Source of the DNA: Candidatus Hermodarchaeota archaeon
GTDB lineage: Archaea > Asgardarchaeota > Hermodarchaeia > Hermodarchaeales > Hermodarchaeaceae
Length of the DNA stretch: 40,277 nt
Direction of reading: 5' to 3'
Assembly (NCBI GenBank): GCA_016839805.1
Contig: JAEOTO010000041.1
Coordinates: forward strand, 1 to 40,277
Position 1 is the first letter of the stretch. Each line of letters begins with the position of its first letter. A program made the translations under genes and the position numbers. This document shows positions 33,501 through 40,277 of the stretch, piece after piece. The notes under the pieces are model-generated. The model made no database searches. It was not told the DNA's origin and saw only the letters and a list, made by a program, of their open reading frames with translations.

Positions 33501-34022
33501 ATGGATGCACTTGAAGCTATTATGACGCGTACATCCGTTCGTGATTTTACCAACGCCCCTATATCAGATGAACAAGTCGAGACACTGTTGAAAGCCATGA
33601 TTGCTGCTCCAAGTGGAGGAAATTTGCAGCCATGGCGTATCTATGTGATACGGAACAACGCCGTTAAACGACAACTCGTTAAGGGGGCACGAAACCAGAA
33701 ATTCATTGCGAATGCGCCTGTAGTGTTTGTGATTTGTCGGGTGCCAGATGAATCTGGTGATGAATATGGAAGTCGTGGACGAAATTTGTATTCCATCCAA
33801 GATACGGCTGCTATGACCCAAAATCTCTTGATTACAGCTCATGCCTTGGGCCTAGGTGGGTGTTGGGTGGGTGCATTTGATGACGCAGCCATTGCTACAG
33901 CCATTAAAACTCCCCTTAGTGTAATTCCGGTGGCAATCGTTCCGATTGGAATCCCTACAAAACTTCGAAAACCTAGAAGCCGAAAAGCTCTGAAACGTGT
34001 TGTCCACCTTATCCCAGAATAA
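33501..34022 (+). CDS. Nitroreductase family protein
   Basis: RTSVRDF, APSGGNLQPW, GLGGCWVGAF. Confidence 0.93.
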   Translation: MDALEAIMTRTSVRDFTNAPISDEQVETLLKAMIAAPSGGNLQPWRIYVIRNNAVKRQLVKGARNQKFIANAPVVFVICRVPDESGDEYGSRGRNLYSIQDTAAMTQNLLITAHALGLGGCWVGAFDDAAIATAIKTPLSVIPVAIVPIGIPTKLRKPRSRKALKRVVHLIPE

Positions 34023-34040
34023 AATGAGGACAAGCGGGAC

Positions 34041-34511
34041 CTAATCTGAGTTGCGTTCAATACGGGTCCATTTGAACCCTCGAGTTCGTCTGACTGGGGG
34101 ACGTGTTCTGTCCGTTTGGGTTGTGCGACCCTTACTATCTTTAGAAGAAGAGTGGGATTGGGAAGATAGATTGCGTTCCGTCTTTACTTCAGGAATGGTG
34201 GTAGTTGAGGATTGGAGTTTTCCATTTCTACCTAGGCTCAATTGCAGCCGTCCTTGGAATAGACTCGTTTGTCCACCGACTAATCGAAATACGTTCCCAT
34301 CTACTACTTGGGTAATGGCATCATCCCAGAGCGTTAAAAACATAACACCAGTTTCGTCACCAACAAGAACATCGGCGACTTGATGACTGGAGCCATCATT
34401 GCGGCTTCGTACCTTTCGAACGGCTTCAGTTTTCATAACCTTGAACTCAATCGTAATTCCCCGTTGAGAGGGACGGAGGTTAGCAAGTTTTAATTTTTGG
34501 CGAGTTGACAC
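34041..34511 (-). CDS. Third, more divergent OB-fold SSB-like protein
   Basis: VGDETGVMFLTLWD, TSLFQGRLQLSLGRNG; start placed at GTG 34511. Confidence 0.8.
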   Translation of the reverse strand: MSTRQKLKLANLRPSQRGITIEFKVMKTEAVRKVRSRNDGSSHQVADVLVGDETGVMFLTLWDDAITQVVDGNVFRLVGGQTSLFQGRLQLSLGRNGKLQSSTTTIPEVKTERNLSSQSHSSSKDSKGRTTQTDRTRPPVRRTRGFKWTRIERNSD

Positions 34512-34808
34512 ATCAATAACCTTGAACGAAATTACTGATCTGGAATCTAAAAACGTCGTAACCCACGGACCAACCCGCAAAAACAAGTTAGCAGCCAAGG
34601 GCCCAATGCCTTTTCAATAAACAGACCAGGGGAGCAATTCACGAAACCCCTTATATATCTACCCCGTCATGTCGCTAATCCAGAAAGCAACCAGCAACTA
34701 GAGAAGCCGCGATGAATCACACCAGCACCCTCTCAGGAATAAGTTATACCTCTGATTCATCCATTAAGGAAACCAACCAGAGAATACGCCAAGGAGATTC
34801 CGAGCATC

Positions 34809-35297
34809 ATGTCCGAGGAAAGACTTTGTATTTTCATTGATGGCGGAAACGTCTTCCACGCCGCCAATACCCTAAAGATCCACGTTGACTTAGCCAAACT
34901 CGTCACCGCCTTAACAGCTAACCGAACACTCATTCGAGCCTACTATTACGACGCTACCTCGAACACCCCTGCACAACAACGCTTCTTTGATAAACTACGC
35001 CACCTAGGATTCGCCGTGAAGACCCTCCCACTCCGCCAATACCAAGGAACCCCTTTTGAGAAAGGCATCGACGTCATGCTCGTCACCGACATGCTCACAC
35101 TCGCCCACACCAACACCTACGACACCGCCCTCCTCGTCTCCGGCGACAAAGACTTCACCTACACCCTCCAAAAACTCAAAACCCTCGGCAAAACCATCGA
35201 AGTCGCCGCCTTCACCCACGCCCTCGCCACCGAACTCCAACACGCCGCAGACAACACCATCCTCCTCGACCACCTGATACCCAAAATCAAGTTGTAA
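34809..35297 (+). CDS. NYN domain (LabA/DUF88, PIN-fold) protein
   Basis: IFIDGGN, EKGIDVML..D, LVSGDKDF. Confidence 0.92.
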   Translation: MSEERLCIFIDGGNVFHAANTLKIHVDLAKLVTALTANRTLIRAYYYDATSNTPAQQRFFDKLRHLGFAVKTLPLRQYQGTPFEKGIDVMLVTDMLTLAHTNTYDTALLVSGDKDFTYTLQKLKTLGKTIEVAAFTHALATELQHAADNTILLDHLIPKIKL

Positions 35298-35339
35298 AAA
35301 AAGCCTAAAAAAGAAAAAGAGAGGGAGGAGCAACCTCCC
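35296..35339 (-). terminator. Hairpin plus U-tract after actin 3'-end copy 4
   Basis: GGGAGG-TTGCT-CCTCCC followed by a T-rich tract. Confidence 0.7.
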
Positions 35340-35355
35340 GTTAAGTGAAGACCGT

Positions 35356-35409
35356 TTAGAAGCACCGATGGGCCACGCCAGCGCCCTGCTCCACATATTC
35401 CTTTTTTGT
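35356..35409 (-). repeat. Displaced actin 3'-end, copy 4 (TKKEYVEQGAGVAHRCF*)
   Basis: Direct repeat of actin exon 3; 8 synonymous codon changes, plus M>V and I>A. Confidence 0.9.
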
Positions 35410-35468
35410 TGAAACGCGTTTGATTCATAAGGTAGTATGGAATAGTAATGTGAATAGAGGTTGGGTTT

Positions 35469-35729
35469 ATGTCCGAACAAGTGATGAACACACCAGTTGG
35501 AAAGGTCACCAACTATTACGCAAAAATCAATGTCGCCGTCATCGAATTATCCGCCCCATTGAAGAAAGGTGATGAAATCGCCATCAAGGGCGCAACCACA
35601 GAGTTCACCCAAACCGTGGAATCCATGCAAATCGAACGCGAAGACATTGAATCCGCACAATCAGGCCAAGCCATCGGATTAAAAGTCAAAGAACGGGTGC
35701 GGATAGGCGATACCGTCTATCGCATTTAA
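35469..35729 (+). CDS. Translation-elongation-factor-like small beta-barrel protein
   Basis: VGKVTNYYAKINVA...LKKGDEI.IKG.TT.F.Q.VESMQIE...VRIGD.VY. Confidence 0.85.
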   Translation: MSEQVMNTPVGKVTNYYAKINVAVIELSAPLKKGDEIAIKGATTEFTQTVESMQIEREDIESAQSGQAIGLKVKERVRIGDTVYRI

Positions 35730-35805
35730 TGGATACACAGAAGACCTTTGATTACTACTTATCGTCCTACCTCGCTGTCGTTACCAAATCTGCAAAGCAT
35801 GGGGG

Positions 35806-36228
35806 TTAGAGGGTTAACCCTCCAATCTGGCGCAAAAAGTTTGCCACATCGATGAGCTGCCAAAACTCCGCGAGTTTCTCTTCTTCGAACCGGTACAAGT
35901 TGAAGCTACTGAACTTGATTTTCTTTCCAGTAGGGGCGATGCCCTGGAACTCACCTTGATGCGTCCCAGTAACGGTAATACGCATCGCCGCGCGATCCTC
36001 TGTGGCGAAAAGATCTTCAATTGTCACATGAACGTCAGGGAGCGCTTTCAGCACTAGTTGCATAAAATCACCAACTTCCTCACGTCCCTTCACATCCACG
36101 AAAGCACCTGCCAAATCGTGCCGAACGAAACCAGATGTAACCAACCGAGGAACCACTGTTAAATCCCGATCATTGAACGCCTGAATAATTCTTCTAATAA
36201 CCGCCATATTCTCTTCTGCTGTCACCAA
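35806..36228 (-). CDS. SnoaL-like ester cyclase (NTF2-like)
   Basis: ALPDVHVTIED, GTHQGEFQGIAPTGKKI. Confidence 0.9.
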   Translation of the reverse strand: MVTAEENMAVIRRIIQAFNDRDLTVVPRLVTSGFVRHDLAGAFVDVKGREEVGDFMQLVLKALPDVHVTIEDLFATEDRAAMRITVTGTHQGEFQGIAPTGKKIKFSSFNLYRFEEEKLAEFWQLIDVANFLRQIGGLTL

Positions 36229-36324
36229 ACAACCTCCAACCCCATATCACCCAACCAATAACATATCAGCCTACCGATTAATCCCCTCACACGCAAATTA
36301 GAATCAAAGTTCTTGAAATTAGTG

Positions 36325-36369
36325 AAAAAGAAACCAAAAAAGAGAGAAAATGGGAGGACAAGCCTCCCA
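36325..36369 (-). terminator. Hairpin plus U-tract after actin 3'-end copy 3
   Basis: TGGGAGG-CTTGT-CCTCCCA then a T-rich tract. Confidence 0.7.
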
Positions 36370-36385
36370 AAAGAAAACAGCCAAT

Positions 36386-36445
36386 TTAGAAGCAGCGGTG
36401 GATAACTCCAGCACCCTGCTCCATATATTCTTTCTTTGTCACCCA
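36386..36445 (-). repeat. Displaced actin 3'-end, copy 3 (WVTKKEYMEQGAGVIHRCF*)
   Basis: Peptide identical to exon 3; 6 differences, all synonymous. Confidence 0.93.
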
Positions 36446-36478
36446 TACCTCAGTTTCGCTCAACCAGAAAAAAGAAAG

Positions 36479-36907
36479 CTAGAGGGTGACTTCAGGAGGA
36501 GAGAGGAGAAGGAATAGGTTCCTGGATGGAGTGTCTTGTATTAGTGTCCACGCACTCCAGAACCCTTCTTCCGCAATTATAGCTAGTTGAAATCCTGCAT
36601 GACTTAACTTGAGGAGGTATTCGAGATGACGCACTTGCTGGCTTAACACCCTCTGCAATTGTGGTGTATAGTCTGAGGAATGTTCGCTGGCAGTTCCCGG
36701 TAAACTCAGCTCGTGAACCCAACTTGGTAAGGATACTTCGATGATAATCTTGATGGTATCTGCCTTCTGTGGGGTATGAGCCAGAAGTACTTGAACCCAA
36801 TCTGTTTCATGGACCAGGACTATCCCTTCGTCCTCATCCTCATCCAATGAAGTCTTTGCTTTGGCACAAAAGTCCTTGCATGCTTGAACAAAGTCTGAAT
36901 ACTTCAT
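36479..36907 (-). CDS. Hypothetical protein
   Basis: ORF with plausible RBS; no motif recognised. Confidence 0.7.
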   Translation of the reverse strand: MKYSDFVQACKDFCAKAKTSLDEDEDEGIVLVHETDWVQVLLAHTPQKADTIKIIIEVSLPSWVHELSLPGTASEHSSDYTPQLQRVLSQQVRHLEYLLKLSHAGFQLAIIAEEGFWSAWTLIQDTPSRNLFLLLSPPEVTL

Positions 36908-37141
36908 TGCTCTAAGTCCTTCTCTCATTTATCTTCGACCAAGTTTTTCGGTAGCCAGTCAATGTGAGTAGGAGAAGTCAAGTCACCAGATGCAAGAGGG
37001 CAGAAGGTTACATATTAGCTGGTGTGAAATCGCCGATTTACAAAAGTACCCTGCTTTATAAGACGGGTTAACAGAATGTCAACTTAGGAATCTCCCCTTG
37101 TTTTCGAAACAGTGAGCACAATCGAACTGAATCCAACTGCA

Positions 37142-38128
37142 CTATGTTTTGGTATGAGGTTCAGATGTGTTGAATAATTGCGCCCAGAATCGTTCCTTTG
37201 GGCCAGGGTAGAAGTGGTGAGCGTAATAGATAATGGGTCGAACGGACTCAACGCCATCTAGTTCGTTGATGTGGTTGATGATTTGTGGTGAGTAATTTGC
37301 GACTTTGACAAGAAACATGGAAAAAAGAACTGGAGCGGAAGCACTAGCATAAGTAAACCAGTATTCGAGGGGATATTCGCGTTTAAGTACTTCCACAATC
37401 TTACGTCGCTTTTCATCGCCTCCACGGAATGCAATCCGGGCGAGAAAACGTGTCGAGCCACCTTCAGCGACATCATAATCGGGGCATGGATGAAAACATT
37501 GTTGGGTGGTGCGATAGTCTCCGAGGCCTTTTTCATGAAACCATGTTGCTTCTGCGGATCCATTGGTGCCAATAAGATCGGCTAAGAGTTTTCGGACGCG
37601 CCGTTGGGTTAATCGAGTGAGTTGCGCAATTTCATTGACTGACATGCGAACATCCTTTCGAAGGCACCGCAATACTTGGAGATGCATCGATGTGAGGGTA
37701 CATTTCTTTCCTTTTTCAACCAGCAGGGTATGAAATTCAATGTCATTGACCGGTTCCAGTTCATGCAAGAATAAAGTGAGTTCATCTAATTCCTTCGAAC
37801 CAACATAGTCGGCATAAATCATCACATTCCCGTCAGCGAGGAAATTAACTCTATCAATCATCGGATGTGTTCCAAGACGCTCTCGGAACTCTTCACTGGG
37901 AGGAGGGGTTGCGATATTCAGAATGGCTGTACAAAACGAGGCACCCAGCATGGCATAGCTTGGGTAGAGGTAATATCGCCGAATGACGTTGCTGGCTTCA
38001 AGATTCACCACCCGATTGCGTACGGCAGTCACCGATAACTTCAATGCCCTTCCCAAAGCCCGATAGGATGTCCGTGGATTCTCCCCTAACAACAAGAGAA
38101 TCTGTTTGTCGATAAGATCCACTGGCAT
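37142..38128 (-). CDS. Lrp/AsnC-family regulator with tandem wHTH modules
   Basis: DLIDKQILLLLGENPRTSYRALG...AVRNRV and a second LRCLRKDVRMSVNEIA HTH. Confidence 0.85.
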   Translation of the reverse strand: MPVDLIDKQILLLLGENPRTSYRALGRALKLSVTAVRNRVVNLEASNVIRRYYLYPSYAMLGASFCTAILNIATPPPSEEFRERLGTHPMIDRVNFLADGNVMIYADYVGSKELDELTLFLHELEPVNDIEFHTLLVEKGKKCTLTSMHLQVLRCLRKDVRMSVNEIAQLTRLTQRRVRKLLADLIGTNGSAEATWFHEKGLGDYRTTQQCFHPCPDYDVAEGGSTRFLARIAFRGGDEKRRKIVEVLKREYPLEYWFTYASASAPVLFSMFLVKVANYSPQIINHINELDGVESVRPIIYYAHHFYPGPKERFWAQLFNTSEPHTKT

Positions 38129-38245
38129 CCTCACACCTCCCAATGAAATAACCTATACCTTCAAAGAGTAAAAATCCTATGGGTGACCCCTATACCTCGA
38201 ACGCTGTCAGTCGGGAAACCGCTACCGCTTAACCCAGCAAAACCC

Positions 38246-38277
38246 AAAAAAAAGAGAAAAGAGGAGGCACAGCCTCC
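38246..38277 (-). terminator. Hairpin plus U-tract after actin 3'-end copy 2
   Basis: GGAGGC-TGT-GCCTCC then a T-rich tract. Confidence 0.7.
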
Positions 38278-38294
38278 CAATAGGTGAAGACCGT

Positions 38295-38355
38295 TTAGAA
38301 GCACCGGTGAATAACGCCAGCGCCTTGCTCCATATATTCTTTCTTCGTCACTCAC
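38295..38355 (-). repeat. Displaced actin 3'-end, copy 2 (*VTKKEYMEQGAGVIHRCF*)
   Basis: 6 third-position differences from exon 3 (5 synonymous, 1 TGG>TGA). Confidence 0.93.
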
Positions 38356-38649
38356 AATACGAGGGTTGTGTGGTTTTAATTGCCTATTCCTGAAAACCAT
38401 AACGCATAAAAACCAACTAAAACCGGACCCCTTGAGCGAAGAAAAAAACTCAGTGAGACTAAACCTTTGATTCATGATGGCTCAGATTGTATACAGGTTG
38501 ACGAAACAACTACTCAGACTACATATGTTTGTCTGGACACGAACGAGTTATTTTTAGGTTTTCCAATTGTAGGAAAAGTCGATCGCACGAAGGCATTGAA
38601 TATTGCTCGTTGGTTACGCCCAACACAAAATGGGAGACAAACAGTAATC

Positions 38650-39693
38650 ATGAAATCCGCTCCAAGTAAGTTGATTCAGCAGCTAGGAGCAAATAACTAT
38701 GGAAATCAATGGTTTGTTAATTCTGTTAAATTAAATCGGTTCCTGAAAACGAAATTCTTGTTCAAAACGCAGTCAAAGTTAGAATTTCCACTTACGCGAT
38801 ATATCATTGAGTGGATTAAAGCAGGCGTAGATGTAAAGCGAATAGTGTTGCTCCTACTCTTAACAGAAGGTGGTGGGAAAAAATATCGAAACATCTTCTT
38901 CTATAATCGAAACCAATTGTATCACGAGCTTTTAGTCGATTGTATATGGCAACTCACAGAAGAGCTTCCAACGAGCTATATGATACCTAGTAAATACATT
39001 ACTAAAACTGGTGAAATCCGGAACACACCTGATACTGAATATTGGCATAAGAAAATCGTCCAACTAGTCTTTGAACTCAGTCCTTCACTCAAATGTAAGC
39101 CTGCTTTACTTCAAACAAAAACAGCTTATCAAAGCGAAGCCCAACCAAATGGTGAATACCTCCTAAAAGGTACTAAACTAGAAAAGGAGTTAATGGCCCT
39201 CCTTATTATTGGAACAGAAGGATACATCACACCCTTTAATAACCAAAATGGGTTTTGTTCAGCAAATATTGGGTTTAGATGTAGTCACCCAACACTCCTC
39301 CTCCAATTTATCAGAATTTTCAGAGACATCAACATCCACATGACTCTCATCAAGGATAAGAAGAGCTTTTCAAAGCTTGGTGGAGCCCACAATTCTTCTT
39401 ATGATACTGGAAAAAAGATTCTAGAACTAATTAGGAGACACGGAGATCTTCTCGGAACAATTCACGGGAACTCAATCTTTCATGAAGGAGTAAAAAAATC
39501 TAAACTTCTCATCGCTAGTTTAGATTTCTACATAAAACAGAAATCAGGTGCACTTAATCGGAGCATTTCTAGAAAACAGTTACACGAACTTCTTAACCAA
39601 CGAATTGAATCGCAAGCATTAATGCCGATACAGGAAATACTCAAGCACTTAGATCAGAACCCTCGTATCCACCGTAATATCAGAAGCCAATAA
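38650..39693 (+). CDS. Putative free-standing LAGLIDADG homing endonuclease (double motif)
   Basis: Two LAGLIDADG-like helices, VLLLLLTEGGG...IFFYNRNQLYHELL and MALLIIGTEGYI...IGFRCSHPTLLLQFIRIF; AT-rich; ORF open from 38467, ATG 38650 preferred. Confidence 0.7.
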   Translation: MKSAPSKLIQQLGANNYGNQWFVNSVKLNRFLKTKFLFKTQSKLEFPLTRYIIEWIKAGVDVKRIVLLLLLTEGGGKKYRNIFFYNRNQLYHELLVDCIWQLTEELPTSYMIPSKYITKTGEIRNTPDTEYWHKKIVQLVFELSPSLKCKPALLQTKTAYQSEAQPNGEYLLKGTKLEKELMALLIIGTEGYITPFNNQNGFCSANIGFRCSHPTLLLQFIRIFRDINIHMTLIKDKKSFSKLGGAHNSSYDTGKKILELIRRHGDLLGTIHGNSIFHEGVKKSKLLIASLDFYIKQKSGALNRSISRKQLHELLNQRIESQALMPIQEILKHLDQNPRIHRNIRSQ

Positions 39694-39735
39694 AAAAGAG
39701 AAAGGCTGGGTGCGTTCCATTAAGGAAGCACACCC
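39692..39735 (-). terminator. Terminator-like hairpin plus U-tract of the functional actin gene
   Basis: Imperfect GGGTGTGCTTCC-TTAAT-GGAACGCACCC stem followed by CTTTCTCTTTTTT. Confidence 0.55.
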
Positions 39736-39763
39736 GTTCCTTATAGAGGGGTTCACGCAGCGG

Positions 39764-40277
39764 TTAGAAGCACCGGTGAATAACGCCAGCACCCTGCTCC
39801 ATGTACTCTTTCTTGGTCACCCACTTGCGCTGCAACTAGGTCTTCTAATTCCATATACGCTGAAAGGTTTTGAGTGACGCAAGAATTGAGCCCCCGATCC
39901 ACACCGAATACATGCGCTTTCACCCGCATACCATCAAGGTAGGCATCTGGTGGCGCAACAATCTTAACTTCGACGTTTTCGGGGATTTGTTCGATGATTT
40001 CTTTGCGGAGGCGTTCTTTGAGTCCGGGGAACATGGTGGTGCCGCCGGAGAGGACGATGTTGGCGTAGAGGTCGCGTCGGAGGTCGACGTCGCATTTGCG
40101 GACGGCTTCGACGATGGCGTCGTCGAGGGGTTGGGCTTCGACGCCGATGGCGCCTGGATTGAACAAGACTTCGGGGCCTTGGAATCGTTCGGCGCCGACG
40201 GTGAGGGTGGAGCCGTCGGGGAGCATGTATTTCTTTTCCATGCCGGCGACTTTTTCGGCGAGTTTAGTTTCTTTCTC
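39764..40277 (-). CDS. Asgard actin (Lokiactin-type), 5'-partial, spliced: exons 40277-39947, 39918-39855, 39824-39764
   Basis: YMLPDG...GAERF..PEVLFNP...CDVDLRRDLYANIVLSGGTTMFPG...KIVAPP; after removing two BHB introns it continues [41 protein letters not shown]. Confidence 0.95.
39825..39854 (-). other. 30-nt BHB intron 2 in actin mRNA
   Basis: UUCA/UGGG exon helix, GCGU/GCGC central helix, AUA and AAG bulges, AAUUAG/CUAGUU hairpin; splicing gives CGU AU|G UGG; contains an in-frame UAG. Confidence 0.88.
39919..39946 (-). other. 28-nt BHB intron 1 in actin mRNA
   Basis: UGCGC/GCGCA exon helix, CACC/GGUG central helix, AGA and AAA 3-nt bulges, internal hairpin; splicing gives CCA G|AG CGC. 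Confidence 0.9.

Follow-up and report, generated by a model that had tools for sequence, protein, structure and literature searches.

We analysed a 40,277-nt stretch of DNA from a Candidatus Hermodarchaeota archaeon (the window), which is contig C32 of the 2.3-Mb genome G000 (86.7% complete; labels with G, L and C denote genomes, loci and contigs), and found that the lokiactin gene at its end is interrupted by two short inserts. The first of these, intron 1, is very probably a tRNA-type intron that would be spliced from the lokiactin mRNA by EndA and RtcB. Structure, frame restoration, covariation, exon selection and enzyme presence were observed here, and the chemistry is taken from work on other archaea (PMC2738675, PMC10485636). 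In the proposed pathway, the lokiactin pre-mRNA would fold into a bulge-helix-bulge (BHB) at intron 1, a two-subunit EndA would cut after the second base of each bulge, and RtcB would join the exons; with intron 2 handled likewise, the mRNA would then encode a normal actin. As for its origin, the sequence context suggests that intron 1 did not arise in place and probably arrived as part of a 3' end that replaced the original one, travelling with the adjacent LAGLIDADG gene by cutting and homing.

The minus strand from position 40277 encodes an actin (Pfam Actin, 1e-30), whose best relative of solved structure (PDB) is the HC1 actin. It was assigned to lokiactin, the highly conserved Asgard actin that is collinear with eukaryotic actin up to the C-terminus, by sequence comparison (PMC9834061). 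The actin frame departs after the VAPP codons, and translation bore out the claim of a preliminary description of this DNA that retention of the 28 nt shifts the frame into a non-actin tail ending in LLTAA. That description had also drawn a BHB at 39957–39913 (minus strand) with fully Watson–Crick exon and central helices, and RNAfold returned precisely this fold as both the minimum-energy and the centroid structure (−18.3 kcal/mol, z −2.95, with 1 of 200 shuffles equally good). All 5 exon-helix pairs and all 4 central-helix pairs are Watson–Crick, the bulges read AGA and AAA, and the intron stem forms 7 of 8 pairs with one C-U mismatch. If each bulge is cut behind its second base, exactly 39946–39919 (28 nt) is removed. 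When all excisions of 5–59 nt near the site were compared, only two, both of 28 nt and one base apart, made the protein match the intronless ortholog at 151/151 residues; the predicted EndA cut is one of them.

We also asked how often such a structure occurs by chance. BHBs as strong as that of intron 1 number 2 in the 2.3-Mb genome and 0–2 in shuffled genomes, and strict BHB motifs number 53 genome-wide versus 52 and 78 in shuffles; the BHB shape alone is not beyond chance genome-wide. The coincidence of the BHB with the break defined by the protein is beyond chance, and a shuffled 28-mer at the place of intron 1 gave both central helix and stem in 7e-5 of trials. The sole other BHB of equal strength in the genome, at G000:C28:339-364 (+), lies outside long open frames, and the scan for strict BHB motifs revealed no further convincing split gene. 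An Rfam scan of 34000–40277 up to E 1 gave no match; on this ground, and because intron 1 has only 28 nt where a ribozyme core takes hundreds of bases, its assignment to group I, group II or any other intron family of Rfam was rejected. A search for a donor of intron 1 or intron 2 showed no similarity to the tRNA introns of the genome, the best genome matches elsewhere being 19/28 and 22/30.

Restoration of the protein depends on both inserts. When intron 1 is removed alone the frame stops within intron 2, and either single removal leads to a truncated or frameshifted protein. With both removed, the C-terminal 151/151 residues are identical to those of intronless actins of the same genus (G012 and G014). 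Alignment to muscle actin placed the two sites at E334 and M355. Intron retention would replace the last 41 residues. In the established actin structure these include K336, W340 and the helices of subdomain 1, and the product would not be expected to function.

Compensatory changes in homologous introns, which the preliminary description had named as a check, were found. Four intron 1 haplotypes were compared, namely that of the window, L005–L007, L008 and L094, the three additional ones having been reached via contigs with the neighbouring open reading frame (ORF). Intron 1 has 28 nt and the identical site in all four; 94% of the pair cells remain paired, the central helix shows no variation, and 3 intron-stem pairs are changed on both sides with pairing retained, while registers slid by 1–3 columns pair in only 22–49%. 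The claim of purine-only bulges stood for the window and failed as a conserved trait, since the L008 bulge is AGC. Through their wobble bases, intron-bearing alleles form 4–5 of the 5 exon-helix pairs, compared with 1–3 of 5 if the intron is placed into intronless alleles. The exons downstream carry 0 non-synonymous versus 19–24 synonymous codon changes against intronless alleles of the same genus.

The predicted machinery is present in G000, which encodes two EndA subunits (alpha and beta) and RtcB, and many of its tRNA genes contain introns. EndA alpha (186 aa; C26:78244–78804 region, with beta in the C22:23974–24570 region) has the Tyr, His and Lys motifs. It aligns without gaps across the crenarchaeal specificity loop and has a Lys at the position of A. 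pernix K44, which is required for the broad substrate range of that enzyme (PMC3241643). Intron 1 therefore combines the features by which BHB introns are recognized: central helix and bulges, exon and intron helices, cuts that restore the sequence, and a host with EndA and RtcB. Every check that could be run on the EndA-type mRNA intron proposed in the preliminary description (fold, pairing in homologs, exon selection) was supportive.

Two points weigh against splicing as described. The covariation is based on four related sequences and has limited statistical power, and a genome 86.7% complete with a contig break inside actin leaves room for a second intact allele. The inserts might be short hairpin insertions that broke a pseudogene, with the working actin in an unassembled part of the genome. 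This is very improbable: there are no amino-acid changes downstream against 19–24 synonymous ones, pairing is kept in four haplotypes, and in the closed genome G019 the one actin that matches contains a BHB insert. The incomplete genome and the contig end inside actin speak in its favour, as does contig C9, which differs from exon 1 at 12 of 219 nt. No second intact lokiactin 3' end was found in the G000 assembly. The missing 5' part of exon 1 is probably on C9, where positions 1–219 overlap exon 1 at 94.5% nucleotide and 100% amino-acid identity; all 12 differences are silent, and the overlap looks like the lokiactin 5' continuation from a slightly different strain. The assemblies of G000, G001, G004, G006 and G008 all break within the actin gene, and frequent breaks at this point would follow from a population in which the tail and the array of tail copies behind it are polymorphic.

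A stable hairpin just after the break would also suit a ribosome that bypasses or shifts frame over the inserts, as in the hop of T4 gene 60, or reads through the TAG, with no RNA splicing; ARAGORN indeed calls one tRNA-Pyl (CUA) in the genome, at G000:C22:264781-264858, which may be a mis-called intron-containing tRNA. We give this explanation very little credence. Ribosomal hopping was rejected because matching take-off and landing codons 28 nt apart are absent; homologous inserts contain TAA, TGA or two stops, the conserved central and exon helices would serve no role in a hop, and read-through would insert 9–10 residues into a nearly invariant segment. An assembly or sequencing artefact, for which one might cite the contig end 330 nt away, can practically be dismissed, since homologous, non-identical inserts occur in independent NCBI, JGI, ENA and Logan assemblies. 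Splicing by EndA and RtcB is the strongly favoured reading.

Features of the actin locus in the window (strand as given; a dot marks an unoriented feature)
Feature	Position	Strand	Remarks
Lokiactin exon 1	39947..40277	-	5' part cut by contig end; Pfam Actin and PDB match
Intron 1, 28 nt	39919..39946	-	phase 1, codon E334 (muscle-actin numbering); frameshift if retained
BHB motif around intron 1	39913..39957	-	5-bp exon helix, 4-bp central helix, two 3-nt bulges
Exon 2, 64 nt	39855..39918	-	13–14 of 20 codons synonymously different from intronless alleles, 0 amino-acid changes
Intron 2, 30 nt, BHB	39825..39854	-	phase 2, codon M355 (muscle numbering); in-frame TAG inside
Exon 3 and true stop codon	39764..39824	-	protein ends in HRCF
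Recoded replacement tail (conversion tract)	39764..39968	-	starts ~20 nt upstream of intron 1; GC 0.635 -> 0.475
Free-standing 408-aa double-LAGLIDADG protein, clade A, putative homing endonuclease	38467..39693	+	convergent with actin; fold matches
~60-bp upstream/end sequence common to clade A and clade B cassettes	38363..38426	.	blastn 73–93%, proteins 20% identical
Dead actin-tail copy 1 (last ~20 codons) and terminator hairpin	38262..38356	-	sequence match
Dead actin-tail copy 2 and terminator	36351..36447	-	sequence match
Dead actin-tail copy 3 and terminator	35323..35409	-	sequence match
Dead actin-tail copy 4, strongly decayed	34702..34731	-	nhmmer E 0.006

Three features that lay outside the preliminary description, the neighbouring LAGLIDADG gene, the recoded tract and the dead tails, bear on how the intron arrived. 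The left border of the tract varies, falling at fragment codons 104, 105, 107 and 108 in the four haplotypes, and every border lies 7–20 nt upstream of intron 1. Upstream of the tract the window differs from the intronless alleles of G005, G008 and G001 at 2–3 of 30 codons (3 for G005, 2 for G008), compared with 13 of 20 codons in exon 2 against G005 and G008. L008 shows the reverse pattern relative to the window, with 12 of 30 codons different upstream and 2 of 26 inside the tract. Recoding that begins sharply, at a left border that varies, and that is found on different host backgrounds is the pattern left by gene conversion from a mobile donor.

The 408-aa protein resembles an endonuclease in fold, with LAGLIDADG-fold proteins, among them I-DmoI, I-Vdi141I and WhiA, as the top Foldseek and VIA-align matches of its model. 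Its second domain aligned with Z 8–9.2 and a root-mean-square deviation of 2.6–4.5 over 105–142 residues; the first domain was modelled poorly. The wider family matches PF14528, the motifs LLTEG and IGTEG, each with an acidic residue and Gly, are conserved in the family, and a dN/dS of 0.09–0.19 indicates purifying selection on the ORF. Intron 1 is present in 4/4 clade A haplotypes with enough sequence. Intron 2 is less constant: in L039 and L094, and in L092 too, an unrelated BHB intron of 34 nt takes its place 3 nt upstream, at codon 354 phase 2, the site that also holds 30-nt introns in six Thor-type genomes and a 31-nt intron in G180. All five intronless same-genus alleles with downstream sequence have a clade B LAGLIDADG gene at the same place, with 20% identity to clade A; it directly follows the intron-free actin in L063 (G014), L064 (G008), L065 (G004), L066 (G012) and L067 (G005), and the G005 frame is interrupted by a stop. 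The tail of the clade B allele looks recoded from about S125–T128 of the fragment. The clade A endonuclease was not found in the genome contig set searched, nor in 18 other genomes of the family, which had clade B only. More distant relatives of the endonuclease (L079–L081) adjoin genes other than actin.

Behind the endonuclease gene, the dead tails alternate with accessory genes (34702–38356) for an AsnC-type regulator, a 149-aa unknown protein, a SnoaL protein, an 86-aa small protein, a NYN nuclease and an OB-fold protein. Cassettes of this array recur in G014, G014:C13 and G006 in other orders, same-genus genomes have up to nine dead tail copies in the stretches read, and the endonuclease cassette comes first in every array seen with its actin. 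A further dead actin tail with terminator lies near a contig end at G000:C38:2591-2711 (L001) and is probably a continuation of the array.

Taken together, the recoded tract, the co-occurrence of intron and endonuclease and the dead tails point to tail replacement driven by the endonuclease. The LAGLIDADG enzyme would cut intron-free actin alleles in the tail, repair would copy in the recoded tail together with the endonuclease gene and the two introns, and a dead copy of the former tail would stay behind. Tail, introns and endonuclease most likely move jointly by homing, much like fungal mitochondrial elements (PMC3630166) and phage introns in collaborative homing (PMC2988022); a divergent new tail, an endonuclease gene and a displaced old tail, the layout of the Allomyces type, are all present at the actin locus. 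Intron 1 is a constant companion of the clade A gene, and we tentatively suggest, further, that it splits the clade A recognition site and so may protect its carrier.

Several observations weigh against this proposal. The endonuclease model is moderate (pLDDT, the predicted local confidence score, 65; best Foldseek E 1.4e-3), and the 408-aa protein itself has no Pfam match. The dead tails begin near codons 354–357, at the site of intron 2 instead of that of intron 1. On the clade A target the evidence is divided: the 4/4 co-occurrence and the tract borders favour the intron 1 site, and the borders of the dead tails point to that of intron 2. Clade B alleles get by without introns, which speaks against immunity through intron 1, and no endonuclease of the clade A/B family was found within a few kb of intron-bearing Thor-, Loki-, Jord- and Odin-type actins.

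Some of these observations lend weight to a reading to which we assign only slightly less than an even chance, namely that the intron is real and spliced but a passenger, brought in on a divergent donor tail through ordinary recombination or pulled along by the endonuclease, protection of the allele being due to recoded wobble bases or to intron 2. Nearly all wobble bases around intron 1 are recoded anyway, recoding by itself apparently suffices to protect clade B alleles, the site of intron 2 is where the dead tails start, and other lineages retain actin introns with no endonuclease nearby. A mere passenger would not be expected in 4/4 clade A haplotypes when intron 2 varies in site and sequence, nor with every tract border within 7–20 nt upstream of it. 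The tail copies and cassettes could alternatively have been placed by an integrase that uses the actin 3' end as its attachment site, as at tRNA genes, with the LAGLIDADG protein as cargo or as a WhiA-like regulator. Up to 9 tail copies with single-gene cassettes, common to genomes in different order, and the presence of WhiA among the top fold matches are in keeping with this. We nevertheless regard it as unlikely, given that every array seen together with its actin starts with the endonuclease cassette, the acidic catalytic positions are retained in both motifs, the new tail is recoded, with recoding extending 80 nt upstream of the duplication border, and no integrase was found among the array genes scanned. 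An integrase would in any case bear on the origin and not on splicing.

To see how widespread such inserts are, we screened 400 Asgard genomes with the last 66 actin residues, inspected 41 odd scorers more closely and aligned them with splicing allowed. Inserts of 28–34 nt were found in the actin tail of 13 of the 400 genomes. All 20 inserts analysed form hairpins, with 4/4 central-helix pairs in 15 and 3/4 in 5; the exon helices are weak in inserts outside Hermodarchaeia and G019. Within the last 66 codons covered, seven sites are used (334, 338, 341, 354, 355, 362 and 370), and the insert-bearing actins fall in Thor-, Loki- and Jord/Frey-labelled clusters plus G019. Two Loki-type actins have two hairpin inserts each, L051 (G174) at sites 362 and 370 and L055 (G180) at sites 354 and 362. 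The closed 1.42-Mb genome G019, which we take to be of the Odin type, has a 34-nt canonical BHB insert in the Ser338 codon (G019:C1, ~535635–535670; L018/L057), with no endonuclease nearby. Actin introns without a neighbouring endonuclease in other lineages imply that introns persist without one, and those introns may be relics or of another origin. Weak extra actin-tail copies (E 0.01) lie near Thor-type intron-bearing actins at L045:2471-2533 (G321) and L047:175-253 (G338), hinting that the tail may have been duplicated in Thor-type genomes also. The viral contigs searched yielded only actins from giant-virus bins. The suggestion that automated annotation would treat such a gene as aberrant held for other Asgard actins, several of which were deposited as a truncated 'actin family protein' (e.g. 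MDF1538084.1, 367 aa versus 379); for the window allele itself, protein searches with the unspliced tail gave no homologue. As a still more general and equally tentative possibility, composite elements made of a free-standing LAGLIDADG gene and a recoded tail with target-splitting BHB introns might have seeded actin introns at no fewer than seven sites in five Asgard lineages by repeated attacks on the tail, with the mRNA spliced by the tRNA machinery.

Among the closest prokaryotic relatives of eukaryotes, lokiactin is the hallmark protein of the cytoskeleton. If its expression needs one or two EndA/RtcB steps, Asgard archaea have spliced protein genes by a route unrelated to group II introns and the spliceosome; nothing in this analysis supports an ancestry of these introns to eukaryotic ones. 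The actin locus offers a testable route for the origin of ORF-less BHB introns via a neighbouring free-standing endonuclease, and truncated deposited actins can mislead structural and phylogenetic work. The BHB mRNA intron as such is a rare known type, and what is new is the gene in which it lies, the presence of two introns, the large number of sites and the link to a free-standing endonuclease with its carried tail. The literature consulted cites only cbf5 and HVO_1309 as spliced archaeal mRNAs, neither from Asgard (PMC10485636), a 2026 preprint devoted to the tRNA introns of Asgard archaea covers neither mRNA nor actin, and our literature search, whose coverage left out most subscription journals, found no report of Asgard mRNA or actin introns.

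The closest precedent is the BHB intron in the cbf5 pre-mRNA of Crenarchaeota, which has 16–44 nt, is spliced (Yokobori 2009, PMC2738675; reviewed in PMC10485636) and is too short to encode a nuclease (PMC2738675). Like it, the lokiactin intron is short and ORF-less, lies in a conserved codon of a conserved gene, has BHB ends and a host with two-subunit EndA, and is patchily distributed. Unlike it, the lokiactin intron occurs in an Asgard host and an actin gene, has a canonical instead of a relaxed motif, and is one of two introns 64 nt apart; the tail of this gene has seven or more such sites in the phylum, and there is a link to a free-standing endonuclease. Splicing has been shown for cbf5 and is predicted from sequence for the lokiactin intron. 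The mRNA intron of Haloferax HVO_1309 likewise combines an archaeal mRNA, a BHB, EndA cutting and rejoining, but differs in lineage and in its alpha2 enzyme, and the passage on it reports no link to a mobile element (PMC10485636). Fungal mitochondrial endonuclease ORFs with a foreign C-terminus (Allomyces atp6; Glomus atp6, atp9, cox2 and nad3; PMC3630166) share the divergent tail, the LAGLIDADG gene and the displaced native tail; the actin locus is distinguished by its archaeal chromosome, the endonuclease on the opposite strand, BHB introns in the carried tail and several displaced tails between accessory genes. Homing of ORF-less group I introns, collaborative or in trans, through free-standing phage endonucleases (PMC2988022, PMC2790892) offers a separate nearby endonuclease and exon bases on the flanks that are co-converted, but those introns are ribozymes, whereas the lokiactin intron is predicted to be spliced by EndA and its nuclease is a candidate for cutting at the intron site. 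Archaeal rRNA BHB introns, finally, also bring together BHB splicing and LAGLIDADG mobility in archaea (PMC2738675), with the difference that their nuclease is encoded inside a large rRNA intron and that of lokiactin outside a 28-nt mRNA intron.
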